DNA from: a virus
Reading direction: 5' to 3' (one strand)
Length of the DNA stretch: 64,000 bases
IMG/VR virus record: IMGVR_UViG_3300024261_000028
Location: 1-64,000 of that record
Part shown: one piece after another, positions 13,134 through 63,997 of the stretch
Layout of the letters: each line of letters starts with the position of its first letter
How positions within the stretch are numbered: the first letter of the stretch is position 1
Translations under genes and position numbers: made by a program
The notes under the pieces: model-generated
What the model was told of the DNA's origin: nothing
Databases searched by the model: none
Seen by the model: the letters and a program-made list of their open reading frames with translations, nothing else

Positions 13134-14981
13134 ATGGAAAAAGATAAGAACGTAATAGGCAAATCATTTGGTGATGAGGAAATATGGGATTATATTCCAA
13201 CTGAAACGGACTACAATGCTCACCCTGAGAAGATAGGTAGTGTGAATTGGCAGAATGGTAAGCCCGTTCTATCTTTCTCCTCTCTATGTGATAAGACCAA
13301 ATCGATATTTACTTCTGTCAAGGGAGTGCCAATAAACGTAACAGAACAAAATGGGGACAATTATATCTATAAGAGAGAAAACGAATACACGATAAACATA
13401 TCCAAAAAAGTAACAGCAGGGATAAATAGATATACAGCGTTCAACCATGAGTTAGGACACTACGCATTTGACAGTTTCAACAACCAATTCGGTTTACATA
13501 TAAACGAGGAATTGAAAGATATACCAATGGAACATCATGACAAGGCTATTGAAATATATAGAACCGTATTCAATATATTGGAAGATCAAAGAGTTGAATC
13601 GTTAATGGGAAAGATTTATCTCGGAACGGGAAAGAGATTTAAACAATCTAGGAAACGATTAGGTCAGATGAAACCAGAATCTCATAAGGCTAAAGATCCG
13701 TTAGACGCATTACATTGTGCAAGAGAATTTAGAGAGGATTCAATAACAAGAAGGTTTAAAGAAGCCGAGAATGTTATGGATAAAATTGCATTAAAAGATA
13801 GTGAAGCTAGTATAATATTGGCTAAACACTACATCAAAACAGTAGTAAATCCGTGGTTAAGAACACAGTTAAAGAACTTTGATAAGAAAGCTACTACACA
13901 ACAATCAATGAAGGAAGATCCTAACAAACCTATAACAGCAACTCCAAAATTTAACAAAGCATTTAAAAACGCATTTGTGGAAAACAGAAAATGTGATCAT
14001 AGGGAGTTATCTGATACAGATGAACTTGATTCACTTGAAGATACTAAGAAAAGAGTTGAAGCATCAAAACTAAGTATGGAAGATGTATTAAAAGCCTCAC
14101 AGAATAATGCAAAAGGAAAGATAAGTGCAATCAAAGATAAAATAGAACAAGAAGCAAGAAAGGCAAAGGTTAGTAGTGCAGTATTGAACAAAGCAGTAAG
14201 GGAATACTTTGGTAATGAGGTAAATGAATCTTTTACCAATATAAACCCAGATATGAGAGTTGCACAACAACTTAACAAGATATTTAAACTGCTTCAGGCA
14301 AACCAGAAACCAAAATTGTCTGATACGGGGGATTCATTGTCAATACCTGCCGTTATTAGAAGAATGGCAAGAGGATATGGTGATATACATGTCAAACAAT
14401 CACCTAAAGACAGTTTGTCAATTCTTGTATCAATAGACGCAAGTGGATCTATGAGTGGAAGGGAAATAACTATTGCGAGAGATATGATGTCCACACTATA
14501 CAAATCAATACATGGTATTAACAATATAGAACTCAAAGGTGTTGTTTGGAGTGGTAGTGAGTATCATACAGCAGTATGTGAAGTTAGAAACATAAAAGAA
14601 ACACAAAGAATAGTTTGTTCAGGAGTGTTTGGTGGTGGAACACCTACACCAGCAGGTGTTGAATATTCTGAGAGAAAATTGGAAGAAATGAAAGGCAAGA
14701 AAAAACTATTGATAGTCATTACTGACGGTTATCCAAACAGTTATTCAAATAGTAATTTAACACCAGAACAAATGGTAAGGAAAGAGATAAACCGTGCAAA
14801 AAAGAAAGGCATAATGACAATGGGTATAGGTGTTGGTATAAGTGGAAATGATCGTAAAAGTGATCCAATGAATGTAATGTTCGGTCATAATGGCTACATA
14901 ACTACATATGATATGCAAGATACGCAAAATGTTGTAATCAAGAAGTTCAGGGATATAATAATCAAACAGATGAGGAGATGA
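13134..14981 (+). CDS. metallopeptidase-like (HExxH) plus von Willebrand factor A domain protein, CobT/DUF2201-like
   Basis: N-terminal FNHELGHYAFD and ILEDQRVES; C-terminal MIDAS VSIDASGSMSG and LIVITDGYPN; GGAGG RBS upstream. Confidence 0.75.
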   Translation: MEKDKNVIGKSFGDEEIWDYIPTETDYNAHPEKIGSVNWQNGKPVLSFSSLCDKTKSIFTSVKGVPINVTEQNGDNYIYKRENEYTINISKKVTAGINRYTAFNHELGHYAFDSFNNQFGLHINEELKDIPMEHHDKAIEIYRTVFNILEDQRVESLMGKIYLGTGKRFKQSRKRLGQMKPESHKAKDPLDALHCAREFREDSITRRFKEAENVMDKIALKDSEASIILAKHYIKTVVNPWLRTQLKNFDKKATTQQSMKEDPNKPITATPKFNKAFKNAFVENRKCDHRELSDTDELDSLEDTKKRVEASKLSMEDVLKASQNNAKGKISAIKDKIEQEARKAKVSSAVLNKAVREYFGNEVNESFTNINPDMRVAQQLNKIFKLLQANQKPKLSDTGDSLSIPAVIRRMARGYGDIHVKQSPKDSLSILVSIDASGSMSGREITIARDMMSTLYKSIHGINNIELKGVVWSGSEYHTAVCEVRNIKETQRIVCSGVFGGGTPTPAGVEYSERKLEEMKGKKKLLIVITDGYPNSYSNSNLTPEQMVRKEINRAKKKGIMTMGIGVGISGNDRKSDPMNVMFGHNGYITTYDMQDTQNVVIKKFRDIIIKQMRR

Positions 14982-19488: not shown

Positions 19489-20568
19489 TTAGGGATTATC
19501 TATGCCTTTATCAGTGAGTACAAACTCACAGTCGAACACTGCTTGTTTTGGAGAGTCTATTGCTGTGGCGTATCGTTTTTTTCCTGCTTTCTTAAAGTAT
19601 AGACGATATGTACTAGCATGACCCACTATGTTTCCTCCTACTGCATATGTTGGATCTCCATAGGCTTTTGCTGGATCTGTACCTACCTGGTTTGTCATTA
19701 GTACTGCTACATTGAAGAAATATGCCGAGTTCTTTAATACTCCTAGGAATTTTGCCAAGTTCTGTTGTCTTGATGCTAGAGTTCCCCTGCCGAGATATTC
19801 CTCTCTGAACTGACCTGTTGCACCATCTACAATGATTAGTTTGATTGACTCGTCCTCTACCAATCTTGTACTGAGATTCATCACTTCTTCTACAACAGTA
19901 TCTGTGTTAGGTGTGTGTATATATGATAGATATTCATCTATATATGAGTCCAACTCATCTTCTGTCATGTCTTCTCCATATCCTCTTGCCTTTATTATTT
20001 GGTGCAATCTTTCTGGGTCAAATGTGTCTTCACAATCTATCCATATTGCTTTCCATCTATGTTTAAACATTGCCTCTACTAGGGTTGAGTAGCAGAATTG
20101 TGTCTTACCTGATGCGAATGCTCCGAATACTTCTGTTAGTGCTTCTAATTCTATTCCTCCCCCTAACATCTCATCTAGTTCTGTATTACCACTTGGTATT
20201 TTTAACATATCTTTTCTATATTTTCTAAGTTCTGATATACTTAATTTGGGTGATCGTGTTCTCTTGTTATTCTCTAACACTTTTTTACATACGTTTAATA
20301 GATTATGCAGCCTACCCTCTTCCATATCCGTATATGTTCTGATCTCGTTACTACCCCTGATTAAAACATCATAGACCGTGGTGACTCCCACAAGTTCAAG
20401 TTTCTTATATGAAAGTTCACCAAGACCTGCACCACTCCCTACATAGTCTTTCAAATATATTGATGTCGGATTGTCCTTGTCCTGCTTTACTTTTTTTGTT
20501 TTTTTTGGTTTAATTATCTCTTGTACTTCTGTTGTTATTTCTTCATCTGTCATGTATCTATTACACAT
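19489..20568 (-). CDS. radA: RadA/Rad51-family recombinase
   Basis: Walker A GAFASGKTQFC, Walker B LIIVDG, N-terminal helix-hairpin-helix-like region, 359 aa. Confidence 0.85.
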   Translation of the reverse strand: MCNRYMTDEEITTEVQEIIKPKKTKKVKQDKDNPTSIYLKDYVGSGAGLGELSYKKLELVGVTTVYDVLIRGSNEIRTYTDMEEGRLHNLLNVCKKVLENNKRTRSPKLSISELRKYRKDMLKIPSGNTELDEMLGGGIELEALTEVFGAFASGKTQFCYSTLVEAMFKHRWKAIWIDCEDTFDPERLHQIIKARGYGEDMTEDELDSYIDEYLSYIHTPNTDTVVEEVMNLSTRLVEDESIKLIIVDGATGQFREEYLGRGTLASRQQNLAKFLGVLKNSAYFFNVAVLMTNQVGTDPAKAYGDPTYAVGGNIVGHASTYRLYFKKAGKKRYATAIDSPKQAVFDCEFVLTDKGIDNP

Positions 20569-20583
20569 ATCCCACTAATAAAC

Positions 20584-22575
20584 CTATTCGCTCCAACGAT
20601 ATCTACCGTTGGCACATTTTCTAATCAATCCTGAATTATATGTCTGTGAGAATTTATTCATACTTTGTTTTCTTTCCCAGTTAAATTCTAATTCCAATAA
20701 CTCATATAGATCTTTCTCATCTACATAACCCTTGTCGTTTTCACATTTTTTCCAGGCTTTAGTCCATTGCTGTTCCTTGTTTAACTTTTCTGATTTAACC
20801 AATGTTAATTGTGACCCTGTATCCTCCAACTCTTTACCAAATGAATGATAACTCTCTTTGAACAACTCATAAACTGCTACAACATCAGATTCATCTGCTT
20901 TTGTTTTGAACAGTAACTTTGCATATGACATTGCAAGTCTTCCTAATGATTCTAATGTTCTTGGTGTAACTGGTATACTGTTTTTTTCTTTTGATATATT
21001 CCTAAGTTTCTCATATATTTTTTTCAATTTAAATTGTGCTGATACAGTTAATTCAACATCCAATGTCTGAACATAATTTAGATATGATGTTAATTGTTTA
21101 CTAGTCATATATGTTTCCTTTTCTTCTGTTCCACTTCCAAAATCCTCCAGTACCTTATCTGCTTTTTTAGCGTCCATTATATTATCAACTTTATCCTTAA
21201 TCAAGAATATCAAGTCAAATCTAGTTAGTATAGGTGTAGGTAAGTCTATATTCTCCATCAAAGTTAAAGAGTCATCATAGTTTCCAAATCGGGGGTTGGC
21301 TGCTGCCAATGTTACGGCAATAGCTGGTAGACTGACATTTTTTCCAGCAACGGAACGACTCACCTTGCCTTGTTCCATGACCTCGTGCATTATCCCCATG
21401 TCATCCTTGTTCATTTTGTCAAACTCGTCTACTATTGCTACACCACGGTGGCTAAGAGGATAGGTTCCAGCTTGCAACACACTGGTTCCATTATCTCTCT
21501 TGACCATTCCTGCTGTGAGGCCTGCAGCAGTACTTCCCTTGCCCGTGGTAAACGTGCTTTTTTGTGTAACCTTTTCAACTTCCTCTAGTAGCATTGATTT
21601 TGCCATACCTGGATCACCTACAAGTAATGCATTTACCCATCCTCTTCTTCTCTCGTGTATTCTTCCTCTTTTACTTACAATAGATAATATCAATGCAAGT
21701 TTAATATTTCTATAACCAAATATATGTGGTGCAAATGATCCTATTAAATCGTCTATTAGAGAGTCATCTTCTCTATTCATCCATTCTTGTAGATCTTCAG
21801 GTTTTGGCATGATTAATTCAACATCATCTAAATCCTTTACAGTCAATATATCCATATATATGTCCTTTTGTTTACCTTTTGTGTCATAATCAACTCTAAA
21901 TATGGCTGTTATCTTTTTCTTTTGTCCCATATATGTGTGTCCTACATCTGTATCTATCAATTTTGCATCTATATCCACTGGTTGATTCTCAACTATTTCC
22001 TCTATTGGCTCTTGTAATACTATGTCTTGTACTAGTTGTGATACTGTAGAGCCCTCCTTTAATTCCATTTTTGCTCTTTTGCATGATGGGTTTAGACATA
22101 CTAATGGTTTTAATACCCTCCGACTGTCAGCATTTCCTCTCTCTTCACTATAACATAGAGGACATACAAACGTACCTGATATAGGGTATGCCTGTCTTCT
22201 AGCAACTGCTAGTATAACTGCATTGAATGTCAATGGCTTGTTCTCATGTTCTGTTGTTATTTTATGTAATAGTATGTTGCTGTCTTGTTTTATCTTTATT
22301 TTAATATGTGCAAAATGAAATGCTGCTATTTTTTTCCCTCTATGTATGGTGTCCAATGTATTCATAAGTGCTGCTGACGCAAGTTCAATTATGTCTAGTC
22401 CAAACTTTGCATAGAATGGTGCAATATATGGATGGTCCACGTCAAGGTAATATATACTATTGTCCTTCATTTTGAGGAGTTTTTCTTCATCCTTCCATCT
22501 TAATAGGACGGCCAGGTTGTTTGCCCATAATCGATCAGGGTAAACTTCATCTAATATTGGTTTAGTAAAAGGCAT
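20584..22575 (-). CDS. mcm: MCM replicative helicase (archaeal type)
   Basis: C4 zinc finger CPLCYSE...CLNPSCKR, Walker A GDPGMAKS, Walker B IVDEFDKM, arginine-finger motif TRFDLIF, C-terminal winged-helix-sized tail; 663 aa. Confidence 0.95.
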   Translation of the reverse strand: MPFTKPILDEVYPDRLWANNLAVLLRWKDEEKLLKMKDNSIYYLDVDHPYIAPFYAKFGLDIIELASAALMNTLDTIHRGKKIAAFHFAHIKIKIKQDSNILLHKITTEHENKPLTFNAVILAVARRQAYPISGTFVCPLCYSEERGNADSRRVLKPLVCLNPSCKRAKMELKEGSTVSQLVQDIVLQEPIEEIVENQPVDIDAKLIDTDVGHTYMGQKKKITAIFRVDYDTKGKQKDIYMDILTVKDLDDVELIMPKPEDLQEWMNREDDSLIDDLIGSFAPHIFGYRNIKLALILSIVSKRGRIHERRRGWVNALLVGDPGMAKSMLLEEVEKVTQKSTFTTGKGSTAAGLTAGMVKRDNGTSVLQAGTYPLSHRGVAIVDEFDKMNKDDMGIMHEVMEQGKVSRSVAGKNVSLPAIAVTLAAANPRFGNYDDSLTLMENIDLPTPILTRFDLIFLIKDKVDNIMDAKKADKVLEDFGSGTEEKETYMTSKQLTSYLNYVQTLDVELTVSAQFKLKKIYEKLRNISKEKNSIPVTPRTLESLGRLAMSYAKLLFKTKADESDVVAVYELFKESYHSFGKELEDTGSQLTLVKSEKLNKEQQWTKAWKKCENDKGYVDEKDLYELLELEFNWERKQSMNKFSQTYNSGLIRKCANGRYRWSE

Positions 22576-33490: not shown

Positions 33491-34135
33491 TTATTTAATA
33501 CCTATCCAACAATTAACTGAAAATCGCCCTCTATTAAATTCCTTTGGGGATGTTGTTGGTAATACAGTGTGTGGTATTCTTGATCCAAATATTACTGCCA
33601 TATTGTTTTCTGGTTCTATTGTTATTAATTCCGCATTATTATCTACTGGTTTACCTTCGTATATTGGTGAATTTGTAAATTGTATTTCCCCTCCATTGTA
33701 TTTTTTTGGTTCTTCATTAAAATAATAAACCATTGTAATTAATCTTGAATCACCATTAAATGAATCTATATGGTATTTATAAAACTGACCGTCATCTCCA
33801 TATCTGCTTACCTGTGTTTCATGATAGTTTGATTTGCTGAATAGATGTATTGGATATGGTGAACTGATGAGTGTTTGTTTAAATTTATCATTTTTAAACA
33901 AAGTGTCTATGATATCAAGTAATTTAGATTTTGATCTATCATGATCATATATAATATCATAATATGATGTGTTATTATTTCTGAAACTTGATTCCTTTCC
34001 TTTACCTATAACTGAATGTTCAAATTCCTTTTTATTTTTAACTGCCTCTTCCAATATTTCCTTATTTTCTTTCTTTGTGAAAATATCTCTTATTATAATA
34101 ATAGGTACAGGGTCATATATAAATTCAAACTTCAT
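33491..34135 (-). CDS. 2OG-Fe(II) oxygenase (prolyl 4-hydroxylase-like)
   Basis: HxD (YKYHIDSF), distal His (RIPHTVLP), Arg (GRFSVNCW); ATGA overlap with the upstream gene. Confidence 0.8.
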   Translation of the reverse strand: MKFEFIYDPVPIIIIRDIFTKKENKEILEEAVKNKKEFEHSVIGKGKESSFRNNNTSYYDIIYDHDRSKSKLLDIIDTLFKNDKFKQTLISSPYPIHLFSKSNYHETQVSRYGDDGQFYKYHIDSFNGDSRLITMVYYFNEEPKKYNGGEIQFTNSPIYEGKPVDNNAELITIEPENNMAVIFGSRIPHTVLPTTSPKEFNRGRFSVNCWIGIK

Positions 34136-44148: not shown

Positions 44149-44171
44149 GATATATAAATGGTACTAATGGG

Positions 44172-44681: not shown

Positions 44682-44689
44682 TATATAAG
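44682..44689 (-). promoter_or_regulatory. TATA box for gene starting at 44659
   Basis: CTTATATA on the minus strand, 23-30 nt upstream of the ATG. Confidence 0.45.
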
Positions 44690-45730: not shown

Positions 45731-45738
45731 TATATAAA
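45731..45738 (-). promoter_or_regulatory. TATA box for the major tail gene
   Basis: TTTATATA on the minus strand, 22-29 nt upstream of ATG 45709. Confidence 0.5.
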
Positions 45739-46205: not shown

Positions 46206-46639
46206 TCTATACCACTCCCTGTTGCACCTGCTTGATGTGTGAAATCTGCCAAGTATCTGTCAACCCACCAATGTGAATCTATACCATCTTGATATATTTT
46301 CTTTCTTATACCTGCTGCGGCTGCTCTTTGTTCCCATGGTTTTGTAAGTCCTGAATGTTTTACAACCCATTCCAATATTTTGTTAAATGGTGGTGGTTTA
46401 CTCCATTTCCATTCTGAACCTGTATCTGATGCGGCTACGGCCCATTTCTCACTGCCTACAATTTTTGCAGTACTGTCATACACTATGCTGTCCTTTTTAT
46501 CACTATCTGAATAATAATATGATGGTAGATGTTCAAACTCGAACTTCATTTCATCCCTTGTCCTGTTGCCTACATCATCAGTTAAATTTCTTCTTAACTG
46601 ACCAAGTGATCTATTATTAATTTTGAATAATCCGGTCAA
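46202..46639 (-). CDS. putative head closure protein (145 aa)
   Basis: Position; start/stop overlaps with both neighbours. Confidence 0.4.
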   Translation of the reverse strand: MTGLFKINNRSLGQLRRNLTDDVGNRTRDEMKFEFEHLPSYYYSDSDKKDSIVYDSTAKIVGSEKWAVAASDTGSEWKWSKPPPFNKILEWVVKHSGLTKPWEQRAAAAGIRKKIYQDGIDSHWWVDRYLADFTHQAGATGSGIE

Positions 46640-47274
46640 GGTACGACGTACACCTCTGCACGATCATGAATTATGTTGTCCACCTCATCTTTCCATTCTG
46701 ACATGGCCTGCTCTTTTTTAATAGCGCCACCAAACTCAAGATCATCCATTTTGATTGAGGATCTAATCAAGTCTATACATGTTAGTTTAAGACAGGCATC
46801 TTCTATATCATCTGGTACTGCTGCACTTCCATACCTGTATGTTACCTTTACCCTGTTGTTTCTTAATATTGAAAATATAAATCCCCTTAGATATAGTTCA
46901 CCTTTTATTTTTTCTACATCGTATGATCCAGGTGTATTTGTATAATCTGTCCATGTTGCGTTAGATCCGTTCCATATCTCTATTTTGTCTCCGGCACTTG
47001 TACAGAGACATGTTTCTCCTGCACCTACGGTAGTTACTTCTCTATGTTTTAATGATATAAATGTCCCCCAACCAAACGTATATAATAGTGGTAATGAGAA
47101 TATTTCCTGAGTTGATTTAGTCCTTCCATATGTGTGACCAGTTCTACGGTCTATTTTCTCCTCTGCTCTTTTGATTAATTTCTCTACCTGGGCAATACTG
47201 GGACTGGTAGAACATGTTATGGATATTCTAAGGAAATCTGCCACATCTGATGTTGAGATATAACAAGTTGCCAT
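46636..47274 (-). CDS. putative head-tail connector (gp6-like adaptor, 212 aa)
   Basis: N-terminus YISTSDVADFLRI...IAQVEKLIKRAEEKIDRRTG resembles gp6-type connector N-termini; position; own TATA box. Confidence 0.55.
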   Translation of the reverse strand: MATCYISTSDVADFLRISITCSTSPSIAQVEKLIKRAEEKIDRRTGHTYGRTKSTQEIFSLPLLYTFGWGTFISLKHREVTTVGAGETCLCTSAGDKIEIWNGSNATWTDYTNTPGSYDVEKIKGELYLRGFIFSILRNNRVKVTYRYGSAAVPDDIEDACLKLTCIDLIRSSIKMDDLEFGGAIKKEQAMSEWKDEVDNIIHDRAEVYVVP

Positions 47275-47296
47275 GATATATAAGTGGTGTTATAGA

Positions 47297-47306: not shown

Positions 47307-48857
47307 TTAGTACTCTGAATATATGTCATTTCTTAAATATTCATACAGTGTTGGACTGTATTTCACTATATCATTCCATTCTTTCTTACGGTCATCCAAC
47401 TGTTTTATAGGTAATAAAAACGGTGTATAATCAAATTCTTCCATCTTATTACCATATCTTAGAGTGTTGTCACTAAGAGGAAAATATCCATACCCTGTAC
47501 TTATACAACCTATACCACCTTCCTCATTAAATCTGAATCTATACATTTTATCTATAATATGATCTCTAAACCCATGATGTTGTGTAGGTGATAATTCATG
47601 AATCTTTTTATCATAATTTCTATTGAGATTATCTCTCCAGTATTTTGTATCATCTCTTTCACCAAGTGCATAATGCATACTCACAAATTCTGCCCAATTA
47701 TGGAAAATATTTCTGCATGCATAATTATATGCATCTCTATCCCATTGTGATATGTTATCTCGTTCAAACGATCTGATTAGAAATGACAAAAATTCATGTA
47801 CCGTGTATAATCCGTTTGATTCTAATGGTTCAATGAATCCTGCCGACAGTCCTATTGCCACTACATTCTTCACAAATAGTTTATTATGAATTCCCACTCT
47901 CATTGATATATTGGTAAATTTATTCTTGGTTATATCGAATTTTTGTTTCTTTAAATGTTTTTTGAACTCTGTCAATGCCTTTTCATCTGTTGTATATTTG
48001 TCAGAGTAAACATATCCTGTTCCTATTTTACTCCATAAAGGGATATTCCATACCCATCCGTTCTTTAATGCGGTTGCATTTGTTACTCCCTCAAGTTGTT
48101 TTTCCTTGTCTGTATAATTTACATGTGTTGCCCATGCCTTATTGTTAGGTAATATGTCATTATATGGTATAAATTCCTCATTCATTGCCTCTCCAAGCAG
48201 TAGAGATTTAAACCCTGTACAGTCTATGAATAAATCTCCTGTTATTTTATCACCATTGTTTAATAATAAATATTTTATACCTTCATTATCAATTTTAATA
48301 TCTTTCACATTTGATTTTATATGGGTTATGCTTGGCAGACAAATATTATCCCTCAGCCATAGGGCAAACTTGGTTGCATCAAAGTGAAATGCCGTATCTT
48401 TATCGAATCTAAAATTGCCTAACTCCTTTCCCTTGTACACCTTGTTGTTGTTGACCAAAGGCATTATTGGATAGTATGAGTCGGCATAATCCGTATTTGG
48501 TGTTTTTGGGTGTAACATTTTTTTAAAGTACCACAGATTGAGCCTGTTATCGTCTATTGGCTCTGGTATGCTAAACGGATATTCAACTCTACCACTATTA
48601 ATTTTATTAAAGTTTGTAAATCTTATAGTAAACTTGTAAGAGGCATCACAATGCTTCATAAAGTCCTTATCTTTAATTCCAACTAAATATAACCATTGTC
48701 TGAATTGAACTATTGTTGATTCTCCTACTCCTACCGTCTTGATGTCAGGAGATTCTATTAAGGTAATTTTCTTTTTAGGGAATAATCTAACAAAGGTTGT
48801 TGCTGTCATCCATCCTGCCGTACCACCACCTACTATTACAATATTATTTGCTTTCAT
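47307..48857 (-). CDS. flavin-dependent halogenase (tryptophan halogenase family)
   Basis: IVIVGGGTAGWMTA (FAD GxGxxG), ITLIESPDIKTVGVGEST, catalytic-Lys context DASYKFTIRF, FHFDATKFALWLR, LFIDCTGF, WxWxIP motif GWVWNIPL, GTGYVYS, catalytic-Glu context GFIEPLESNG. Confidence 0.9.
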   Translation of the reverse strand: MKANNIVIVGGGTAGWMTATTFVRLFPKKKITLIESPDIKTVGVGESTIVQFRQWLYLVGIKDKDFMKHCDASYKFTIRFTNFNKINSGRVEYPFSIPEPIDDNRLNLWYFKKMLHPKTPNTDYADSYYPIMPLVNNNKVYKGKELGNFRFDKDTAFHFDATKFALWLRDNICLPSITHIKSNVKDIKIDNEGIKYLLLNNGDKITGDLFIDCTGFKSLLLGEAMNEEFIPYNDILPNNKAWATHVNYTDKEKQLEGVTNATALKNGWVWNIPLWSKIGTGYVYSDKYTTDEKALTEFKKHLKKQKFDITKNKFTNISMRVGIHNKLFVKNVVAIGLSAGFIEPLESNGLYTVHEFLSFLIRSFERDNISQWDRDAYNYACRNIFHNWAEFVSMHYALGERDDTKYWRDNLNRNYDKKIHELSPTQHHGFRDHIIDKMYRFRFNEEGGIGCISTGYGYFPLSDNTLRYGNKMEEFDYTPFLLPIKQLDDRKKEWNDIVKYSPTLYEYLRNDIYSEY

Positions 48858-48899
48858 ACCTACTCCACAATTATATTTGTGTTAAGCGATTAATAAATG

Positions 48900-49904
48900 T
48901 TATGTTGTATGTCTAATCACAATAATACCTGAACCGCCTAATCCTCCTCCTCCGTTCCAAGTTGCTCCACCTCCGCCACTACCAGTGTTTGCTCCTGCCG
49001 CACCTCCAGCTTGATTTGAACCTTGTCCACCATTTGAACCATTGTTTCTGCCACCTGTTCCGCCAAAACCTCGTGCCCATGATACTACATTTGCAGCTGC
49101 ACCGCCTCCGCCACCGCCTTGACCGCCATCTCCACCTTGAAGAAAATTATGTGAACCTCCTCCTCCTCCACCGCCATAATAATAATTTGTTGATTCAAAA
49201 TTGGTTATCTGTATACCAGCTCCTCCATTTCCTCCAACTCCTCCATTTGAAGCTTGTCCACTTGGACTAGCACCATTAGCTGAAGCTCCTCCTCCACCGC
49301 CTTGAGCATGATTAACTCCTCCACCGCTACCTGAATACCCACCATATCCTGTTCCTATATATGGTGAATGTGTAGGTGTATTTCCTGTTCCACCTGAACC
49401 TCCACCATTAGCACCATCTGTTTTTGCTGAATAATCACTACTAGAATGTCCGCCTGCACCTCCTCCACCTGTGGCTGTAATTGTTGTAAATCCTGTGCCA
49501 GTTATTGTTGAAGCATCACCACTTGTGGCTGAACCTTTACCAGCACCAACTGTTGTTGTCATTGTTGTTGCAGGTAAAACCACTTCTGATAATTTAAGTA
49601 CGGCACCGCCTCCACCGCCACCTCCAATACCATATCCTCCACCGCCTCCACCGCCAACAATTAAAACATCAACAATACCTGTGGTAGTGATTCCCATAGT
49701 TCCAGATGAAAGGTATGTATAACTTTTATATGTCACACCATCGATAGTATAATTTGAATCTGAACTTCCACCTGAATGACTTGCCACAACAGGTGGGTCA
49801 GTTATAGCTACTCCACCAGCAGCTCCAACAAAACCAACATTCATAATATCCATTGGTTTCTTTAATTCCTTATTCTTTTTAATTGGACTGTCTCTGTGAG
49901 ACAT
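48900..49904 (-). CDS. glycine-rich virion (fibre/decoration-like) protein (334 aa)
   Basis: VDVLIVGGGGGGGYGIGGGGGGGAV followed by repeated GGGG(A/S)GG tracts; ends GGSGIIVIRHTT. Confidence 0.7.
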   Translation of the reverse strand: MSHRDSPIKKNKELKKPMDIMNVGFVGAAGGVAITDPPVVASHSGGSSDSNYTIDGVTYKSYTYLSSGTMGITTTGIVDVLIVGGGGGGGYGIGGGGGGGAVLKLSEVVLPATTMTTTVGAGKGSATSGDASTITGTGFTTITATGGGGAGGHSSSDYSAKTDGANGGGSGGTGNTPTHSPYIGTGYGGYSGSGGGVNHAQGGGGGASANGASPSGQASNGGVGGNGGAGIQITNFESTNYYYGGGGGGGSHNFLQGGDGGQGGGGGGAAANVVSWARGFGGTGGRNNGSNGGQGSNQAGGAAGANTGSGGGGATWNGGGGLGGSGIIVIRHTT

Positions 49905-49907
49905 TTA

Positions 49908-50741
49908 TTACTCCTCTACTGCGTATGCTGCCACGATATCTGTATCTGCTGTACCAAATGATGTAATAGTTAGAATACCTATCTTACTGGCTGCTTGGTC
50001 TGCTGGTTTTGCTCCTACAAATTTCCATGCTGGGAATGTTAAGGTTCTAAGTGTTCCATCTGTGGTTATTTTAATTGTTTTAGACTTACCTATTGCTCTA
50101 TTTGATGTTGTAAATGTAGTAGCAGCACTAATTGAAATTGTTTGTAATTGATCCCCGTCAAAATCCAATGCAGTTGTTGTTGTTGAAGTATCATGAATTA
50201 AGTTTTGAATATTGTCTATATTGTTACCTGCAACATCTAACAATGATGTTGTTGTAGTTCCCGTGAATGTTGGACTAGCTAAAGGAGATTTTAAAGCAAC
50301 TGCTGTAGCATTAGTTGCTATTCCATCTAGGGTAGACTCTACATCTGCATAGTTTGGTATTGCTACTGTGCCTGTAAATGTTGGAGAGGCTAGTGGTGAT
50401 CTTGCTGCTAAATCTGTAGATAGACATGTTACTGTACTTTGTGCTTGAGTACCTGAATGATTTGCTCTACAAAATGGATCTGCTGATAGGTTGTTTTCTA
50501 CTGTAATCCAATGTGATAATGTATTAGGGTTATCTTGTTGTGCTATTATAGAATCCCCGGCTTGTATTGCTTCAGTGAAGAATGTACCTGATACTGATAT
50601 TACATATTGATCTCCTTTTTTAATTGAACATGCTGTTGGTGAGCAATCTAAATCAGGTGAATTTGTTGATGCATTATAATTACCTTTTAGTAAAATATTT
50701 CCTGTTACTCCTATATCTAATGAACCTGAGTTCAAGCTCAT
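49908..50741 (-). CDS. fibre protein with phage tail-fibre repeats (277 aa)
   Basis: PLASPTFTGT occurs twice (SPxFTG tail-fibre repeat pattern). Confidence 0.6.
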   Translation of the reverse strand: MSLNSGSLDIGVTGNILLKGNYNASTNSPDLDCSPTACSIKKGDQYVISVSGTFFTEAIQAGDSIIAQQDNPNTLSHWITVENNLSADPFCRANHSGTQAQSTVTCLSTDLAARSPLASPTFTGTVAIPNYADVESTLDGIATNATAVALKSPLASPTFTGTTTTSLLDVAGNNIDNIQNLIHDTSTTTTALDFDGDQLQTISISAATTFTTSNRAIGKSKTIKITTDGTLRTLTFPAWKFVGAKPADQAASKIGILTITSFGTADTDIVAAYAVEE

Positions 50742-50743
50742 TT

Positions 50744-51181
50744 TTAATTATCTCCTCTATGCCATATCCTTACAACACCGGCATTACCGGCTGATGTCGA
50801 TTTTACCCTTACAACCACTTTTGTGTAAGAATTGCTTAATGTTTCAACTGCCGGTGCAACACTTGCTGCCTGAGATGTTGAGGATTTCAGTTCAACCCAT
50901 CCATTATCATAATCTGTATCTGCCGTACCTGTAAATGCTGTCACAGGATTACTGTCCACATTTCCCCATATGTCATAATCTATACTGTTTGTTGCATGTG
51001 TGTTGAAAATTGAAAATGTTGATGTTCTTGTTCCTCTGGAATCTACCTCTAATACTGCAGAAAAGCAGTTTGTTGTGGTGACATCTATATTTTTATTATA
51101 ACTTCCTATAAGTGACCCATTTGATGCGTCTATTCTCTCTCTAGTTAAATCAACTTGAGCCATATACATTATAGTCACCAT
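50744..51181 (-). CDS. virion-associated beta-rich protein (145 aa)
   Basis: ORF track; position in the head-proximal cluster. Confidence 0.45.
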   Translation of the reverse strand: MVTIMYMAQVDLTRERIDASNGSLIGSYNKNIDVTTTNCFSAVLEVDSRGTRTSTFSIFNTHATNSIDYDIWGNVDSNPVTAFTGTADTDYDNGWVELKSSTSQAASVAPAVETLSNSYTKVVVRVKSTSAGNAGVVRIWHRGDN

Positions 51182-51227
51182 TTAATATATAAGGTTTGTG
51201 AATAAAAAAAGTAAAGTAAAGGTTTAC

Positions 51228-51649: not shown

Positions 51650-51657
51650 ATATATAA
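51650..51657 (-). promoter_or_regulatory. TATA box for gene starting at 51629
   Basis: TTATATAT on the minus strand, 21-28 nt upstream of the ATG. Confidence 0.45.
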
Positions 51658-51746
51658 GGATATTGTAGAGGTCCCTGCTTGAGATAATAAGAATAAAAAA
51701 TATACCTAATCTTTCGACTAGAGTATGTGATTCGAATGTGGTTTGA

Positions 51747-52982
51747 CTAAAGTTTAATATCTCTAATCTTACCTTGAGCGATGAAACTTCTACATACGGT
51801 TTCACCCATAGTTCTGAATACACCTTTCTCAACAAAAGCATTGTTGATGAATGGGTAACCTGGACTTCTACGGGTTGCTTCGTAATATTCTGTTGGGATT
51901 GACACCATGATTCCTAATCTTGGGTAACCATATCCTTCTGCATCAGAAGTATCTAATGCAAATAGTCTTCCTACTTCGTCAGAGTCACAAGTATTGCTTG
52001 GAGCATCTTTGGTTGGAATGAATGGAACTCCATAGATAGAGTCTACATGTATACCTACACCAGTACCTTTGAAAGTTTGGATACCGTTTACATCGACTTG
52101 GACTAATGCTTCACCGTATGGATTTGCAATACGGACAGAAGGCATAAACAAGCCTTGTATTTCGGAATAAACTTCGTGGGAACCGAGGAATACGTTTGGA
52201 TCTTTACCAGCTTTCTTACGGATTGATCTAAGGAATGTTCTTAGTACGTCATCTGTCATGATTCCATTAGTACCTAAAGTACCAGATGGGGATGAGACAG
52301 TTGAATCGAATGTACTTGAACTATCTCTGTCAATTACAGCACCAGAACTTCCTTTCCAAGGATCGTAGTTGTCTGTACTACATGCTCCTTGTAAGTTTCC
52401 TTCTGCTTGGCTTGAAATAATTCTGTCTAAAGATTCCCAGTTAAGTGAACCAGTATGGACAGCACAAGCTGCTGCTGCTCCTGCTTCTACATCAGTTAAT
52501 AACATTCTGTTTAACAGTTCTTTGTGTTGAACTGCCATGAATAGTCTAAGTGAACCTAGACCACCCCAAATGTCGTCTTTACTGTGTGTTGCAAGCCATT
52601 CCATTACCTCTGAGGCACTGAATGGTAGTTGAGCAGTTTTTGGTCTTACATCAATTTCTGCAAGTGTTGGTTTGATGGTATCGGCAATTAAGCCACCTTC
52701 AGTTGTACCACCTAATGCTGTATTGTTACAGGTACCTGCGTCTGCAAGTGAGTCTGCTTTAGCGGTGATAACCCTCCAACCAGATTTGTCCCAAGGATAC
52801 TTTGGTAAGATACCAAATGCATTGGCTTCAAGGTTTAATTGAGCCCATGCGTATGCTCCGAACACTGCGTTGAAAGAACCAGTTGAACTGGTTGTTACTG
52901 GGGCGTCTGCCTTTCTCAAAGAATTACGGTTGTAACCATAGTATAGGGCTTCTAGCTCATCAATTGTTTGAATTTTTACCAT
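51747..52982 (-). CDS. putative major capsid protein (HK97-fold expected, 411 aa)
   Basis: Order portal-protease-scaffold-this gene; size; overlaps the scaffold gene stop by 7 nt. Confidence 0.65.
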   Translation of the reverse strand: MVKIQTIDELEALYYGYNRNSLRKADAPVTTSSTGSFNAVFGAYAWAQLNLEANAFGILPKYPWDKSGWRVITAKADSLADAGTCNNTALGGTTEGGLIADTIKPTLAEIDVRPKTAQLPFSASEVMEWLATHSKDDIWGGLGSLRLFMAVQHKELLNRMLLTDVEAGAAAACAVHTGSLNWESLDRIISSQAEGNLQGACSTDNYDPWKGSSGAVIDRDSSSTFDSTVSSPSGTLGTNGIMTDDVLRTFLRSIRKKAGKDPNVFLGSHEVYSEIQGLFMPSVRIANPYGEALVQVDVNGIQTFKGTGVGIHVDSIYGVPFIPTKDAPSNTCDSDEVGRLFALDTSDAEGYGYPRLGIMVSIPTEYYEATRRSPGYPFINNAFVEKGVFRTMGETVCRSFIAQGKIRDIKL

Positions 52983-53554: not shown

Positions 53555-53599
53555 GTTGTTACTTTATATACTGGAAAAGTAATATATAAGGATTGTCTA

Positions 53600-56500
53600 C
53601 TATGTCTGTTTTTTAATATCTGCTAGTAATTCTAACATTTTCACTGTTGCTTTATTATAATTCTCTGTTGATGCACCAGATACTGTGTCATCTTCTCCTG
53701 AGTATTTTGGATTTAGGTTTCCCCTGTCTTCTTCGCCTGTATAATTCTCTTCTTTTACCTCTCTTGGGTTGTCCTTTTGTCCTGTATCCTGTTGTGAGTT
53801 GTCATATGATGCCCCGGTTCTAATTCCTCCTGCACCGCTTCCTGGGTCCATTATAGCCGTATCTTTTCTTAGGCTTTCACCTGGGTTAATCTCTGCGTCT
53901 ATATTCTTACCTTCCACCTCTATTGAACAGTTACCATAATCTCCAGTTTGTACTTTCTTTTCTACTTCTAGAGCCTCTGCTGGGGGGTCGTTATCCAATC
54001 TCATCTTTCCATTAATACCGTCCTCAGCATTGTTTGCCGTCATGGCCCTGTCATTCTTTCCTAGTTTATTCATACCATCTTTTAATTCGTTCATTAATTC
54101 AATTGCTTTTATTGTATTTCCATCATTTGGATGGTTAGATGAATCATCATTCCAACATACTGCATCATAATAACGGTTTTTACAATTACCAACTACAATT
54201 TTTGGTTTGTTTAATTTATCTTTTTGTGGATCATTTTTCAAAGCCTCTGCATCCTCGTCCTCATACGGTCTGTTTACGTGTTTAGGCTGATTTACGTTGT
54301 GAATTGATGTTGACTCGTTATGATCACATGTCTCTCCCGGTTCTCTTCCTGCAAATCCACCCCTTCCTGGCTCTGTATATGGTGAATCTCCCGATGCCTT
54401 ACTCAATGCATTTTGTTTTGATCCTCCACCATGTTGATTTGATATCTTTCCTGTTTCTTCCCCTTCATTGCTTAATATCTTGGAATCCTTAAACTCTCCT
54501 AGATCTCCCAGTTTATCCCATTTATTACCGCTTCTCTTGTTACCTGTATCTTGATTAAACCTTGCACCTGTTGACTGTCTTCCAAATCTTTGTGAATTTG
54601 ACATGTTATTGGTATTTTTTCCCTCTTTTGGTATTGTCTCTATCCATCTGTTTGTCAATGCATCTTTTAACTCATCCATTAGTTTGATTGTTTCTGTTTT
54701 CTTTGAGTCTGTAGCTTTATCAGTTAGTATATTATCAGTCATATTATTATGGTTTCCTTTTGGAAATATTTTACTATGATGTGTATGTGAATCTCCTGTT
54801 TCTCCAGGACCTTTATCGTGGTAGTTGTCAAATATCACTTTTCTTTCATCTATTTTATTATCTCTCATATGATTTCGTATGGTTTTTTCTTGATGAGACG
54901 TCATTGGTCTATGTGTATGAACTGAAAATTCATTATTTTTATCATTATGTGTTACTCTTGCAGCACCTGTTTCTTTTAAAAATGATGATAAATTCTTATG
55001 TCCTATACGTCTTACCTGTTCTTCATGTGATGCCATTCCATCATGATTTGATATTTTACCATTAGTTGTAACAAAATGTCTTCCGTGAATGAAATTAGAT
55101 GTACCATTTCTAGCATGTAGTTTTTGTTCTGTCTTTAATATATTGTTTATGTCATTGATTATATCAAGTGCTTTTTTTTTGGAATCTTCGTCTTTAGATC
55201 CATCATCAGATTCGTCATCTTTATACTCCCTTACCACCTCACATGTATTGTAATCAGTTTTTAAAAAATATGGATTTTTTAGTTTGTCTGCATCTTTATT
55301 TGCAATTTTTTCCAATTCGTCTGCTTTTATAGCAAATAATACCTTTAATACGTCTAATGTTTTAGTAAAGTTGTTAATATATGTCTCTGTTGGTATTGTT
55401 AATGTTCCTTGTGATCCTCTTCTTGAAGTAGAACTATCTATTGTCGTTGTGCCTGTTTTATGGTCATGTGTTACGGTTGCACTAGGTTTAATTTTTTTGC
55501 CGCCTACCTTTGGTGGGGCTGTTGATGGCTTGTTCCAGTTACCTTCTTGTCTTCTTTTTAATTGGTCTGGAGTCATAGAACGGTTAGGTGTTACTGATTC
55601 TGGTTGTACAGTACTGTATCTTGATCCAGGTTTGTCTTGTCCTGTATCCACATCTGATGGTTTTGTATGCATGAATTTTGGCATTTTTTTGCCATATTTA
55701 TCCTTGCCATCCTCCGTGTATTGTGGTTCTATGCCGTCTGCCTTACAAAGGTCTTCACATGTCATATCGCATGATGAACCACATGATTCAGGACCTGGTG
55801 CTAATTCTTCAGCTGCACCTCTTGCTGCACCTCTTGCTGCACCGGCTGCACCTCTTGCTGCACCGGCTGCTGCACCACCTATTCTAGATGCGGCCATTCC
55901 TATTAATGGTAATATCTTTTCTACTTCTTCCAAGTCTGCTTCTTCTAGCATCTCGTCATCATCTTTTGGTTTAATTGCTTTATCATCTTTAACTTGAATC
56001 TGTTTACTTGCTCTTAATGCATTTGCTTCTATCTTTTTTGGATCTGTTTCTGTAGGATCAGGATCTCTATATGTTTTATCTGTTCCATGATAGGTAGCCC
56101 CGTTTTCCTGTGGCTCTCCCCTGTTGTTTTCCAGGGCCTCTGCATCATCATCCTTGTTTGGTGAATTTGGACCATTTACATCTGCATAAGTGTCATCTCC
56201 TTTCTCGGAATATCCTTTATCTATATAACATTTAAACTTGTCACATCTGATACACATTGTACCGTCACCTCTATCTTTGACATTACCTGCCATTGCCTTT
56301 GCTATCTCATTATGTTGAGTTATTAGTGCCAATGGTACTGCTGGTTCCTCACATACGGCTACTTCATACTGTTCCAAATCTTTTAGGGAGTATGCTACTG
56401 ATCCGTCTTTTTGCATTATTGGTGTTCTATTGGATTTAGTTGCTCCTCCGAATGAAAGTCCCTTATATTTTCCCGACTTTATGGCTTTCCAGATTTCATC

Positions 56501-56812
56501 GTCAAGTTCATAATCTCTAAAGATTTCACCCTGTATTGTTATTGCAGGATATGACTTCCCTTTCTCGTCTGTTACGGTTGTTGAACCGAAATTTATGCCT
56601 TGACCTACAACTCTGTTGGAGTGTGTGTCTGTTATAGGGCCTCCCCTTGCTATCCAAATAGGTAAAACTTTCAATAACTCGTCACGTACGGTGATTTCGC
56701 CTTGTCTGTCTTTCATTTCAACTGTTAGCACCCCTTCAAATAATCTTCTAGAGCTTGTAATAGCTGTTAAATTTTTGGTGACCAGTTTGGAAAAAAACAA
56801 TCGTTCTACCAT
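53600..56812 (-). CDS. prohead (capsid maturation) protease fused to a long repetitive extension (1070 aa)
   Basis: N-terminal ~190 aa: FEGVLTVEMKDRQGE...PITDTHSNRVVGQ...YKGLSFGG (His and Ser contexts of HK97-type S78 proteases); the remainder is low-complexity with repeated motifs. Confidence 0.7.
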   Translation of the reverse strand: MVERLFFSKLVTKNLTAITSSRRLFEGVLTVEMKDRQGEITVRDELLKVLPIWIARGGPITDTHSNRVVGQGINFGSTTVTDEKGKSYPAITIQGEIFRDYELDDEIWKAIKSGKYKGLSFGGATKSNRTPIMQKDGSVAYSLKDLEQYEVAVCEEPAVPLALITQHNEIAKAMAGNVKDRGDGTMCIRCDKFKCYIDKGYSEKGDDTYADVNGPNSPNKDDDAEALENNRGEPQENGATYHGTDKTYRDPDPTETDPKKIEANALRASKQIQVKDDKAIKPKDDDEMLEEADLEEVEKILPLIGMAASRIGGAAAGAARGAAGAARGAARGAAEELAPGPESCGSSCDMTCEDLCKADGIEPQYTEDGKDKYGKKMPKFMHTKPSDVDTGQDKPGSRYSTVQPESVTPNRSMTPDQLKRRQEGNWNKPSTAPPKVGGKKIKPSATVTHDHKTGTTTIDSSTSRRGSQGTLTIPTETYINNFTKTLDVLKVLFAIKADELEKIANKDADKLKNPYFLKTDYNTCEVVREYKDDESDDGSKDEDSKKKALDIINDINNILKTEQKLHARNGTSNFIHGRHFVTTNGKISNHDGMASHEEQVRRIGHKNLSSFLKETGAARVTHNDKNNEFSVHTHRPMTSHQEKTIRNHMRDNKIDERKVIFDNYHDKGPGETGDSHTHHSKIFPKGNHNNMTDNILTDKATDSKKTETIKLMDELKDALTNRWIETIPKEGKNTNNMSNSQRFGRQSTGARFNQDTGNKRSGNKWDKLGDLGEFKDSKILSNEGEETGKISNQHGGGSKQNALSKASGDSPYTEPGRGGFAGREPGETCDHNESTSIHNVNQPKHVNRPYEDEDAEALKNDPQKDKLNKPKIVVGNCKNRYYDAVCWNDDSSNHPNDGNTIKAIELMNELKDGMNKLGKNDRAMTANNAEDGINGKMRLDNDPPAEALEVEKKVQTGDYGNCSIEVEGKNIDAEINPGESLRKDTAIMDPGSGAGGIRTGASYDNSQQDTGQKDNPREVKEENYTGEEDRGNLNPKYSGEDDTVSGASTENYNKATVKMLELLADIKKQT

Positions 56813-59904: not shown

Positions 59905-59912
59905 TATATAAA
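59905..59912 (-). promoter_or_regulatory. TATA box for gene starting at 59881
   Basis: TTTATATA on the minus strand, 24-31 nt upstream of the ATG. Confidence 0.45.
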
Positions 59913-62067: not shown

Positions 62068-62075
62068 TATATAAA
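62068..62075 (-). promoter_or_regulatory. TATA box for the portal gene
   Basis: TTTATATA on the minus strand, 22-29 nt upstream of ATG 62046. Confidence 0.5.
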
Positions 62076-63235: not shown

Positions 63236-63997
63236 CTACCATTTACAATCATATGCAATATTTTGTAAAAAGTCACATGATTTTACAATAACTGGGTATT
63301 TTATACCATTCCATCCATACTCTCCATATAACTTACCCATCATAATTAATTCGGGGGACTTTATATCAACAACACTGCCATAGGAAATACTAAGATGAGG
63401 ATACATGACAGACACCTCTATACCTTCCATATCCCTTGGTAAGGGTGATGAATTTATATAATGAAGAAGGCCAAACGCGTGTCCAAGCTCGTGAATTATC
63501 ACTGATTGCAGTGTATAGTCATTCAATGATTCTATTGCCCAATCGGCATTTCCGTTGTTTATTATTATATGATTGTTGTCAACATAGTTCACATATGCGT
63601 TTATTACCATAAATTTATGGTTGGAGTTTGTAAAATTTATTGATGTGGTGCCAAGTGCGTCGGATCCGCTAAGACCCTCAAATACAACCATTATCGTGCA
63701 GTGTGGAAAGTCTTCCGCAGACTTGTCCTTGTGGTCTTCCCATGCTATTGGCTCATGTATTATTATTTCCCAGTTACCCTTTGGATATTCCTTGAACAGT
63801 GCCTCCGTCCACGCATCTACCGAAACCCTGGTAAGAATCTCATGAGTCCTCGCACGGTCGCTGATGTCAGGATCTATGTCGAAAATACATACTTCAGGGG
63901 TCTTGTCAAACCTGACCTTAAGCGTCTCAAGGTTGTCACCTACACCTGCAGGTATGACTCCCACACCACCAATTAACACTAAAATTAGGAATAACAC
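63236..63997 (-). CDS. secreted metzincin (matrixin-like zinc metalloprotease); 5' end may lie beyond the window
   Basis: HELGHAFGLLH (HExxHxxGxxH) followed by a Met-turn-like VSVMYP; hydrophobic N-terminal signal/anchor; track start is a GTG 3 nt from the window end. Confidence 0.75.
   Translation of the reverse strand: MLFLILVLIGGVGVIPAGVGDNLETLKVRFDKTPEVCIFDIDPDISDRARTHEILTRVSVDAWTEALFKEYPKGNWEIIIHEPIAWEDHKDKSAEDFPHCTIMVVFEGLSGSDALGTTSINFTNSNHKFMVINAYVNYVDNNHIIINNGNADWAIESLNDYTLQSVIIHELGHAFGLLHYINSSPLPRDMEGIEVSVMYPHLSISYGSVVDIKSPELIMMGKLYGEYGWNGIKYPVIVKSCDFLQNIAYDCKW

Follow-up and report, generated by a model that had tools for sequence, protein, structure and literature searches.

A VirX1-type flavin-dependent halogenase encoded in a mobile fibre-tip cassette of a probable archaeal tailed virus

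The DNA analysed here is a 64,000-nucleotide stretch (positions 1 to 64,000; the window) of the virus record IMGVR_UViG_3300024261_000028, and its late genes include a 516-residue open reading frame (ORF) that is predicted to encode a VirX1-type two-component flavin-dependent halogenase. The gene appears to travel as the last member of a cassette that also contains the C-terminal part of a fibre-like gene and a gene for a glycine-rich protein, in a marine virus with archaeal affinity. A fibre-linked halogenase of the VirX1 type, carried in a mobile cassette, is the best overall explanation of these observations, and we hold it with as much doubt as confidence. Coordinates of the features discussed are collected in Table 1.

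The ORF matches the Pfam family PF04820 (Trp_halogenase) over residues 5-421 with 336.2 bits against a cut-off of 21 (E = 4.1e-100), and it matches PHROG 2928, 'tryptophan halogenase', with E = 1e-144. An earlier reading made from the letters alone (the sequence-only reading) had called it a complete flavin-dependent halogenase from five motifs and had proposed a PF04820 search and a structural superposition as checks; the profile search and the superposition described below bear out the call, and all five motifs were found in the protein. The flavin adenine dinucleotide (FAD) fold motif IVIVGGGTAGWM occupies residues 6-17, with the GxGxxG element present as GGGTAG at positions 10-15. ASYKFTIRF (residues 72-80) contains Lys75, the equivalent of PrnA K79, whose counterpart in the HMMER alignments is the lysine of the YK pair in VirX1, AbeH, and Th-Hal. 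GWVWNIPL (residues 267-274) holds the WxWxIP motif, a block on monooxygenation, as WVWNIP at 268-273, and GTGYVYS lies at residues 279-285. FIEPLES (residues 341-347) supplies Glu346, the equivalent of PrnA E346, and forms part of FIEPLESNG (341-349), an instance of the Fx.Px.Sx.G tunnel motif as defined in PMC8407142 that aligns to FIEPLESTG in VirX1 and F(V)EPLESTG in AbeH and Th-Hal. In an alignment of homologues 50-100% identical to the window halogenase, Gly10-12, Gly15, Lys75, Trp268, Trp270, Pro273, Phe341, Glu343, Pro344, Glu346, Ser347, and Gly349 are invariant in 55 of 55 sequences. Pairwise comparison with five relatives gave dN/dS values of 0.08-0.12, indicating that the gene is under purifying selection.

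The AlphaFold2 model of the halogenase has a mean predicted local distance difference test score (pLDDT) of 94.4 and a predicted template modelling score (pTM) of 0.92. It superposes on VirX1 with template modelling (TM) scores of 0.93-0.94 and a root mean square deviation of 2.1 Å, and on bacterial tryptophan halogenases with TM scores of 0.80-0.86; all 50 PDB matches listed for the model are flavin-dependent halogenases, comprising VirX1 and bacterial tryptophan halogenases. Because the motifs, the invariant residues, the VirX1 match and model, and the low dN/dS values agree, the product is almost certainly an intact and functional VirX1-type halogenase as far as can be predicted from its sequence. 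The FAD-binding fold is common to monooxygenases, and weak sub-threshold NCBIfam matches to QhpG, LodB, and geranylgeranyl reductase, which originate from the common flavin domain, would suit an FAD monooxygenase without halogenating activity, or a relic that has lost its activity and merely looks like a halogenase. However, the halogenase-specific Lys75, WxWxIP, and Fx.Px.Sx.G with Glu346 are all present and all invariant, the TM score to a demonstrated halogenase reaches 0.94, and dN/dS is about 0.1, which together leave this alternative scarcely credible.

Judged by its signatures, the window enzyme falls outside the tryptophan halogenases proper. True tryptophan halogenases carry the signatures ATFS[DT][IV] and HPFE[QR] (PMC8269204), and these are replaced by STIVQF (47-52) and YPFSI (93-97) in the window enzyme, as they are by STLGHF and YPFGP in VirX1. 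The label 'tryptophan-type' given in the sequence-only reading is thus appropriate as a family name for PF04820, but strictly the enzyme is VirX1-like and lacks the tryptophan signatures. Bacterial tryptophan halogenases among the PDB sequences match it with E-values of 1e-61 to 2e-78. Among the alignments listed, these bacterial matches end near query residue 413-434 of 516 (413-416 for AbeH and Th-Hal), and the C-terminal substrate module aligns well to VirX1 only.

The limits of the cassette are given by closely related strains. Four siblings (L058, L059, L060, and L063) are 99% identical to the window in the major capsid protein (MCP), 99% in the adaptor, and 99.7% in the tail tube, and the glycine-rich gene and the halogenase are absent from their cassette slot, which holds only a 232-residue protein matching the N-terminal ~108 residues of the fibre-like protein o49908. 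In L060, 544 bp stand in place of 3,103 bp of the window, with flanks 96.8% and 98.4% identical, and blastn puts one breakpoint within the fibre gene (50414/50415) and the other (47311/47312) 2 nt past the last base of the halogenase stop codon (47309). The N-terminal ~109 residues of o49908 are accordingly backbone-specific and the C-terminal ~168 residues are borne by the cassette. The slots of the siblings and the breakpoints indicate that the fibre C-terminus, the glycine-rich gene, and the halogenase are swapped as one unit, and the existence of the siblings indicates that the virus is viable without it. The halogenase had been placed in the virion late operon by the sequence-only reading; it does lie inside the late block, but as an accessory, swappable element rather than a fixed one. 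The four siblings also amount to a natural 'knock-out' series, having another fibre C-terminus between flanks that are 97-98% identical.

The same trio, an o49908-like gene followed by a PF21722 glycine-rich gene and then a halogenase, was recovered from both directions, by a search from the halogenase and by a reciprocal search from o49908, and it is present in L001/L006, L002, L003, L039-41, and L044/45. Across these backbones it occupies three locations, namely the head-neck junction in the window, the tail-fibre module, and a position after the large terminase subunit (TerL). The tail-fibre module houses it in L002, L003, and L044/45, viruses whose tail, nuclease, and TerL genes are 28-62% identical to those of the window; in L039-41, which are abundant 40-kb viruses, it directly follows TerL and nothing else is in common with the window. 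The halogenase-free L051/L056 have the order fibre, glycine-rich protein, FQ-repeat protein, and BppU_N-like protein, and L044/45 reproduce this order with two halogenases inserted straight after the glycine-rich gene, so that from gene order the cassette would seem to behave as an optional add-on. We consider it highly probable that the halogenase is a member of a mobile fibre-tip cassette. Conservation within the trio is highest in the C-terminal ~110-190 residues of the fibre protein and in the N-terminal ~30 residues of the glycine-rich protein, which are modelled at low confidence, and because conservation is concentrated at this junction it suggests that the two proteins may dock on each other.

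The tandem halogenases of L044 (8437-11551) and L045 (4405-7519) are 79% and 63% identical to the window enzyme, and they parallel the tandem pair of the cyanophages Syn9 and Syn10, suggesting repeated duplication or a paired function. Large repeat proteins of 535-1571 residues were also noted in tail modules, 3' of the fibre and glycine-rich pair (L051 6491-8296, L056 8626-10233, L044 11726-16441, and L003 16767-19451); those of L051, L056, and L044 open with a reiterated 'VFQDNVFQ', and those of L051 and L056 start MAKIA.VFQDNVFQDN.

The pairing of glycine-rich gene and halogenase extends through the family. In cyanophage Syn10 a large tail-fibre gene and a pair of PF21722 genes precede the tandem halogenases, and in all 20 of 20 phage records with a homologue of one Syn10 glycine-rich protein (tblastn; genomes of 177-200 kb) a halogenase is found downstream at a distance of 0.5-2.1 kb, in the same orientation. 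Linkage in metagenomes was evaluated at 80 independent loci with halogenases 32-83% identical to that of the window, using hidden Markov models of the glycine-rich proteins over 201 kb of upstream and 137 kb of downstream sequence. Here, 34 glycine-rich genes were found upstream on the same strand (within 4 kb) versus none downstream on that strand. Of the 42 loci whose upstream sequence extends to 2.5 kb or more, 19 show the pairing, versus 0 of 27 on the downstream side (Fisher p = 1e-5, uncorrected for relatedness). The pairing is kept despite halogenase identities below 40%, unrelated backbones, and different host domains. The commonest other neighbours of VirX1-like halogenases are 2-oxoglutarate/Fe(II) oxygenases and JmjC proteins: among 107 loci, PF13759 oxygenases occur in 37 and clusters of P4H-type PF13640 oxygenases in 31 and 23. 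Two families of ~163 residues are also found near halogenases, almost always upstream (21 of 22 and 14 of 14 loci).

The 334-residue glycine-rich protein is with moderate confidence a virion fibre or tail-tip protein, an assignment drawn from its model and family matches. Its model has a pLDDT of 87.8 and is mostly without secondary structure assigned by DSSP; the conserved N-terminus, MSHRDSPIKKNKELKKPMDIMNVGF, is modelled at low confidence and is probably disordered. The alignment used for folding came from a homologue search in which glycine runs dominated and the query itself was not recovered. The best Foldseek matches are the tail tip of mycobacteriophage Bxb1 (9D93 chain Q, E = 5e-5), the fibre of cyanophage Pam3 (7YPX, E = 2e-3), and the glycine-rich domain of ALK (E = 3e-2), which have only local architecture in common with it and, to our knowledge, are not halogenated. 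The protein and one of its two Syn10 homologues match phrog_2295, and the Syn10 homologues match 'tail fiber' PHROGs. A gp38-type polyglycine adhesin, a candidate for this protein, is absent among the Foldseek matches listed. The adjacent o49908 is a putative fibre protein, so called because of its SPLASPTFTGT repeats, the modular exchange of its N- and C-terminal parts, and the presence of its homologues in tail modules.

The chemistry can be outlined from what is established for the family. Free reduced FAD (FADH2) would come from a flavin reductase of the host and be taken up by the halogenase, where FADH2, O2, and halide would yield hypohalous acid at the flavin. This acid would then be led through the tunnel marked by Phe341, Ser347, and Gly349 to Lys75 and Glu346, at which an aromatic carbon of the substrate would be halogenated by electrophilic aromatic substitution. 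The proposed targets would be Tyr, Trp, or His residues of the co-encoded glycine-rich or fibre proteins, modified in the cytoplasm before assembly. From gene content and synteny, we regard the case for a function tied to the fibre proteins or the adsorption apparatus as evenly balanced, and it is possible, though on the whole unlikely, that the fibre proteins are themselves the direct substrate.

The principal alternative is that the halogenase is an auxiliary metabolic gene whose product modifies a free small molecule of host or virus late in infection, such as an indole, a phenol, or a nucleobase-like compound, to give for example a toxin, a signal, or a protectant, the position beside the fibre genes being a matter of hitch-hiking in an accessory region prone to recombination. 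Most characterised flavin-dependent halogenases act on small molecules. All in vitro substrates of VirX1 are small as well (PMC8407142), and prnA is treated as an auxiliary gene in the cyanophage literature. The fibre-linked role is nevertheless weakly preferred over this free-metabolite role, because the linkage is polar over deep divergence and the enzyme is co-mobile with the fibre tip, and because of the precedents of SrpI, MibH, and ChlH, the open active site of VirX1, and the flanking oxygenases. The P4H-type and JmjC-type oxygenase families include protein hydroxylases. Hitch-hiking is hard to reconcile with the strict polarity of the linkage, with a pairing that survives halogenase divergence to less than 40% identity and moves between unrelated backbones and host domains, and with the joint exchange of halogenase and fibre tip; other biosynthetic genes of a metabolite pathway were not found in the window. 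The free-metabolite role is therefore a serious contender to which we give rather less than even weight.

Several further observations count against the fibre-linked role, and some of them would suit the free-metabolite role. Fibre regions are known hot spots of accessory gene insertion and attract such genes, so the adjacency of glycine-rich gene and halogenase could be positional. Some halogenases lie away from fibre genes, among recombination genes in S-B64 and beside TerL in HTVC008M, and fibre and glycine-rich pairs lacking a halogenase also occur (L051/52, L054, L055, and L056), as do sibling strains that make virions without the cassette. No consistent aromatic difference was found between halogenase-linked and unlinked glycine-rich proteins, and no aromatic position is universally conserved in these proteins. 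The TM scores of the Foldseek matches to the glycine-rich protein are low (0.23-0.44), searches of o49908 against Pfam, PHROGs, NCBIfam, and PDB sequences gave no family match and only chance-level leucine-rich repeat matches, and the linkage statistics ignore the kinship of the loci.

A more direct part in the virion was also considered, with the halogenase itself being a virion or fibre component, for instance a trimer on the fibre that acts at the host surface during adsorption. Fibres are generally trimeric. The halogenase closes the fibre cassette as its last gene, within the virion block, and VirX1 is a trimer in crystals (PMC8407142), but flavin-dependent halogenases need diffusible FADH2, which is unavailable outside cells, and the window enzyme has no docking domain or extension relative to VirX1; we consider this arrangement very improbable. 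A broader form of the fibre-linked role is that VirX1-family viral halogenases are virion-maturation enzymes which modify aromatic residues of polyglycine-rich fibre tips, possibly together with P4H or JmjC oxygenases, and which are swapped as a host-range cassette between bacterial and archaeal viruses. This proposal is speculative and we would put it as rather unlikely, but if it were true it would mean enzymatically halogenated adsorption organelles.

Concerning the origin of the gene, dozens of relatives 60-100% identical to the window halogenase are present in marine metagenomes. In a neighbour-joining tree (no bootstrap) rooted with bacterial paralogues from metagenome-assembled genomes (MAGs), the window clade is monophyletic and is nested among uncultured marine viral halogenases, which are in turn nested with the cyanophage copies. 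No close cellular copy was detected in one pattern-based scan of 185,579 species genomes with the halogenase as the only query, the best matches being 31-34% identical. Owing to the viral nesting and the lack of a close cellular homologue, the gene looks to have passed from virus to virus, and a host-derived gene, the other outcome envisaged when a phylogeny was first suggested, was ruled out by the nesting in the same unbootstrapped tree. The closest cellular homologues (31-34%; L027-L029) come from Parvularculaceae and Marinicaulis MAGs, where they occur as divergently oriented paralogue pairs.

The virus has a G+C content of ~35% and encodes a portal, MCP, head-tail adaptor, tail tube, tape-measure protein (TMP), and TerL, as identified with Pfam and PHROGs, in a single minus-strand late block of more than 30 kb that includes the halogenase. 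Among the matches listed, the named cellular relatives of its MCM helicase are all Nitrososphaeria, at 30-35% identity. In a collection of 50,697 phage records, the MCP matches only haloarchaeal tailed viruses of the HCTV-1/HCTV-5/HVTV-1 group (8 records; 25% identity; E down to 8e-24), and the best match of TerL is the haloarchaeal virus HGTV-1 (E = 7e-38). The TATA-like motif YTTATATA occurs in 37 copies versus 16 ± 4.6 expected, mostly just 5' of genes and ahead of most late genes, whereas sigma-70-like sites are not enriched in the window (33 versus 36.9 expected); a scan of the window for sigma-70 promoters and intrinsic terminators gave counts at chance level or lower and so was not informative. 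The MCM, RadA, MCP, and TerL relatives and the enrichment of YTTATATA thus support the archaeal tailed virus named in the sequence-only reading, and the window very probably belongs to one. Its host is probably thaumarchaeal, a reasonable assignment that rests on MCMs of 30-35% identity and gene content, which tempers the picture of a thaumarchaeal halogenase virus.

If the contig came instead from a bacteriophage or a host island, or were a chimera of the assembly, the halogenase would be misattributed to an archaeal virus. Such a reading could draw on the nesting of the halogenase clade within halogenases of bacterial viruses, on a host known by inference in a window where no tRNA was found, and on the MCM-like genes of some Bacillus phages. 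However, the virion block is continuous from the portal through MCP, adaptor, tube, and TMP to TerL, the closest relatives of MCM, RadA, MCP, and TerL are all archaea or archaeal viruses, and TATA-like motifs rather than sigma-70-like sites are enriched. The gene order around the halogenase, which had been proposed as a check, is moreover shared unchanged by 17 contigs, which represent at least 8 samples (the 8 places listed are 8 different samples), so that the locus is not an assembly chimera. A chimera or host island was ruled out by this synteny together with the lack of a close cellular homologue, the best being the alphaproteobacterial MAGs at 31-34%. Overall, misattribution is improbable.

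The immediate neighbours of the halogenase, a glycine-rich virion protein on its 5' side and a head-tail connector on its 3' side, are as they had been described from sequence (Table 1). The gaps are 3 nt between the fibre and glycine-rich genes and 42 nt between the glycine-rich gene and the halogenase, and GGAG precedes the ATG by 5-8 nt in all three cassette genes. On the coding strand no YTTATATA was found between 51186 and 47284, including the 42-nt spacer, in agreement with the earlier description of a ribosome-binding site in place of an own TATA box. Because of the GGAG sites and the absence of TATA-like motifs of their own, the cassette genes are probably transcribed from a promoter ahead of o50744, a layout that favours the predicted co-expression with structural genes. 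The true start of o50744 is probably Met7, where the L054 orthologue starts. A flavin reductase partner, of which none had been visible by eye, was not found among 50 ORFs of the window searched with Pfam either, and none recurs among the neighbours in the 107 halogenase loci; partner reductases of flavin-dependent halogenases are interchangeable and any cellular one can serve (PMC8407142).

Table 1. Positions of the cassette, its genes, and other features of the window
Feature	Position	Strand	Basis
Cassette (fibre C-terminus, glycine-rich protein, halogenase), 3,103 bp	47312..50414	minus	blastn breakpoints
VirX1-type two-component flavin-dependent halogenase (predicted), 516 aa	47307..48857	minus	Pfam, PHROG, PDB sequence match, model
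GGAG Shine-Dalgarno-like element, 5 nt 5' of halogenase ATG	48863..48866	minus	
Glycine-rich protein, PF21722 Gly_rich_2, 334 aa, 32% Gly	48900..49904	minus	Pfam, PHROG, model
Putative fibre-like modular virion protein o49908, 277 aa, two SPLASPTFTGT repeats	49908..50741	minus	inference
o50744, first gene of putative unit o50744-fibre-Gly-halogenase	50744..51181	minus	
TATA-like motif CTTATATA, last one 5' of cassette on coding strand	51186..51193	minus	
TATA-like motif CTTATATA, directly 3' of halogenase, 5' of adaptor gene	47277..47284	minus	
Head-tail adaptor-like protein, 3' of halogenase	46636..47274	minus	phrog_17057 E=4e-23; phrog_442 E=4e-6
Major capsid protein	51747..52982	minus	PHROG and phage-collection matches
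P4H-type 2-oxoglutarate/Fe(II) oxygenase, PF13640, in late block	33491..34135	minus	Pfam
MCM helicase	20584..22575	minus	PF00493 E=1e-61
RadA/Rad51 recombinase	19489..20568	minus	E=2e-52

Besides the two sites in Table 1, minus-strand YTTATATA sites were recorded, among other places, at 62068-62075, 59905-59912, 53583-53590, 51651-51658, 45731-45738, 44682-44689, and 44151-44158. They fall into a class lying ~17-35 nt 5' of the ATG (portal, o59006, o52976, tube, and chaperone) and a class abutting the annotated ATG (o50744, adaptor, and TMP), and o51228 has both spacings, with one site abutting the ATG and one ~21 nt 5' of it. The abutting sites may reflect either mis-assigned start codons, as is probable for o50744, or a second role of the motif. 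Elsewhere in the window, a 1070-residue ORF between the portal region and MCP (53600..56812, minus strand) may be a protease-scaffold fusion; its only match is a weak one of the N-terminus to the S78 prohead protease (E = 0.004), and relatives have versions 80-94% identical to it. A CobS-like AAA_5 ATPase (12203..13111, plus strand) is followed by a VWA/CobT-like protein (13134..14981, plus strand); the cyanophage literature counts cobS, like prnA, among the conserved cyanophage genes that do not derive from the host. Genes for M10/M66-like metallopeptidases are present in the window (63236..63997, minus strand) and in L039 (20025-20666), with no sequence similarity detected between the two. 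The GC and AT skews change sign near 18 kb, coinciding with the change from plus-strand genes (~5-17 kb) to the minus-strand block (18-64 kb).

Viral halogenases as such are not new: prnA of cyanophages has been known since 2005 and VirX1 since 2019, and prnA is listed as an auxiliary gene in virome surveys. On the natural role of phage halogenases, the literature offers speculation only (antibiotics, 'transient' genes), and the halogenase passages found in the cyanophage tail-fibre literature do not mention a linkage to glycine-rich genes. The sequence-only reading knew of no halogenase described in an archaeal virus, and our search agrees, in that no paper or deposited genome with one was found, an absence that is not proof. 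Archaeal viruses are represented neither among the 40 listed records nor among the named organism groups of all 64 halogenase-bearing records of the phage collection. BFVD holds no archaeal-virus halogenase entry, although novelty is poorly tested by a collection with just two halogenase-like models from viruses. What is new here is the extension of the VirX1 family to an archaeal, probably thaumarchaeal, virus, and the polar, mobile unit of glycine-rich fibre tip and halogenase as a genomic context. Natural strain variants and synteny across the family together provide a testable clue to the role of viral halogenases. VirX1 is also a prized iodinating biocatalyst, and the window clade adds dozens of diverged VirX1-like sequences for biocatalysis.

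Among known systems, the closest solved relative is VirX1 of cyanophage Syn10 (PDB 6QGM), the precedent that the sequence-only reading had named. Residues 2-514 of the window enzyme align to residues 3-528 of VirX1 with E = 4.7e-104, but the identity is only 37-38% (37% by structure). The two enzymes share the catalytic Lys and Glu, the WxWxIP and Fx.Px.Sx.G motifs, and signatures of the non-tryptophan type (S-T-x-x-x-F and YPF); each is virus-encoded without a reductase partner, and both lie downstream of PF21722 glycine-rich genes, which in Syn10 match 'tail fibre' families. They differ in that Syn10 has a tandem halogenase pair whereas the window has a single copy, and in that Syn10 is a T4-like cyanomyovirus whereas the window virus is predicted to be archaeal and siphovirus-like. 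In the neighbour-joining tree, VirX1 itself is more distant from the window clade than are the other halogenases of uncultured marine viruses and the first tandem copy of Syn9 and Syn10. VirX1 prefers iodide, accepts a very wide range of substrates, and has an active site that is large and open (PMC8407142). The prnA-type genes of other cyanomyoviruses (Syn9, S-RIM44, P-RSM6, S-WAM1, Sf-CH11, and others) are homologous at 30-47% identity, often tandem, located in virion or fibre regions, and flanked by 2-oxoglutarate/Fe(II) oxygenases, but unlike the window virus these are bacterial viruses with T4-like backbones.

The bacterial enzymes PrnA, RebH, PyrH, Thal, AbeH, and Th-Hal have the Pfam family, FAD module, and catalytic Lys and Glu in common with the window enzyme, whereas the window gene lies outside any natural-product cluster. 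For a protein substrate, the nearest precedents are SrpI, MibH, and ChlH, flavin-dependent halogenases of the same class that act on peptidyl or protein Trp, halogenating aromatic side chains of ribosomal peptides or proteins (PMC10286304, PMC10858898, bioRxiv 10.1101/2025.01.12.632611). MibH groups with VirX1 among the non-tryptophan 'indole' halogenases (PMC8269204). These three enzymes are encoded in clusters for peptides that are made on the ribosome and modified after translation, together with a precursor peptide, which carries a leader in the case of SrpI, whereas the candidate substrate in the window would be a 334-residue virion protein.

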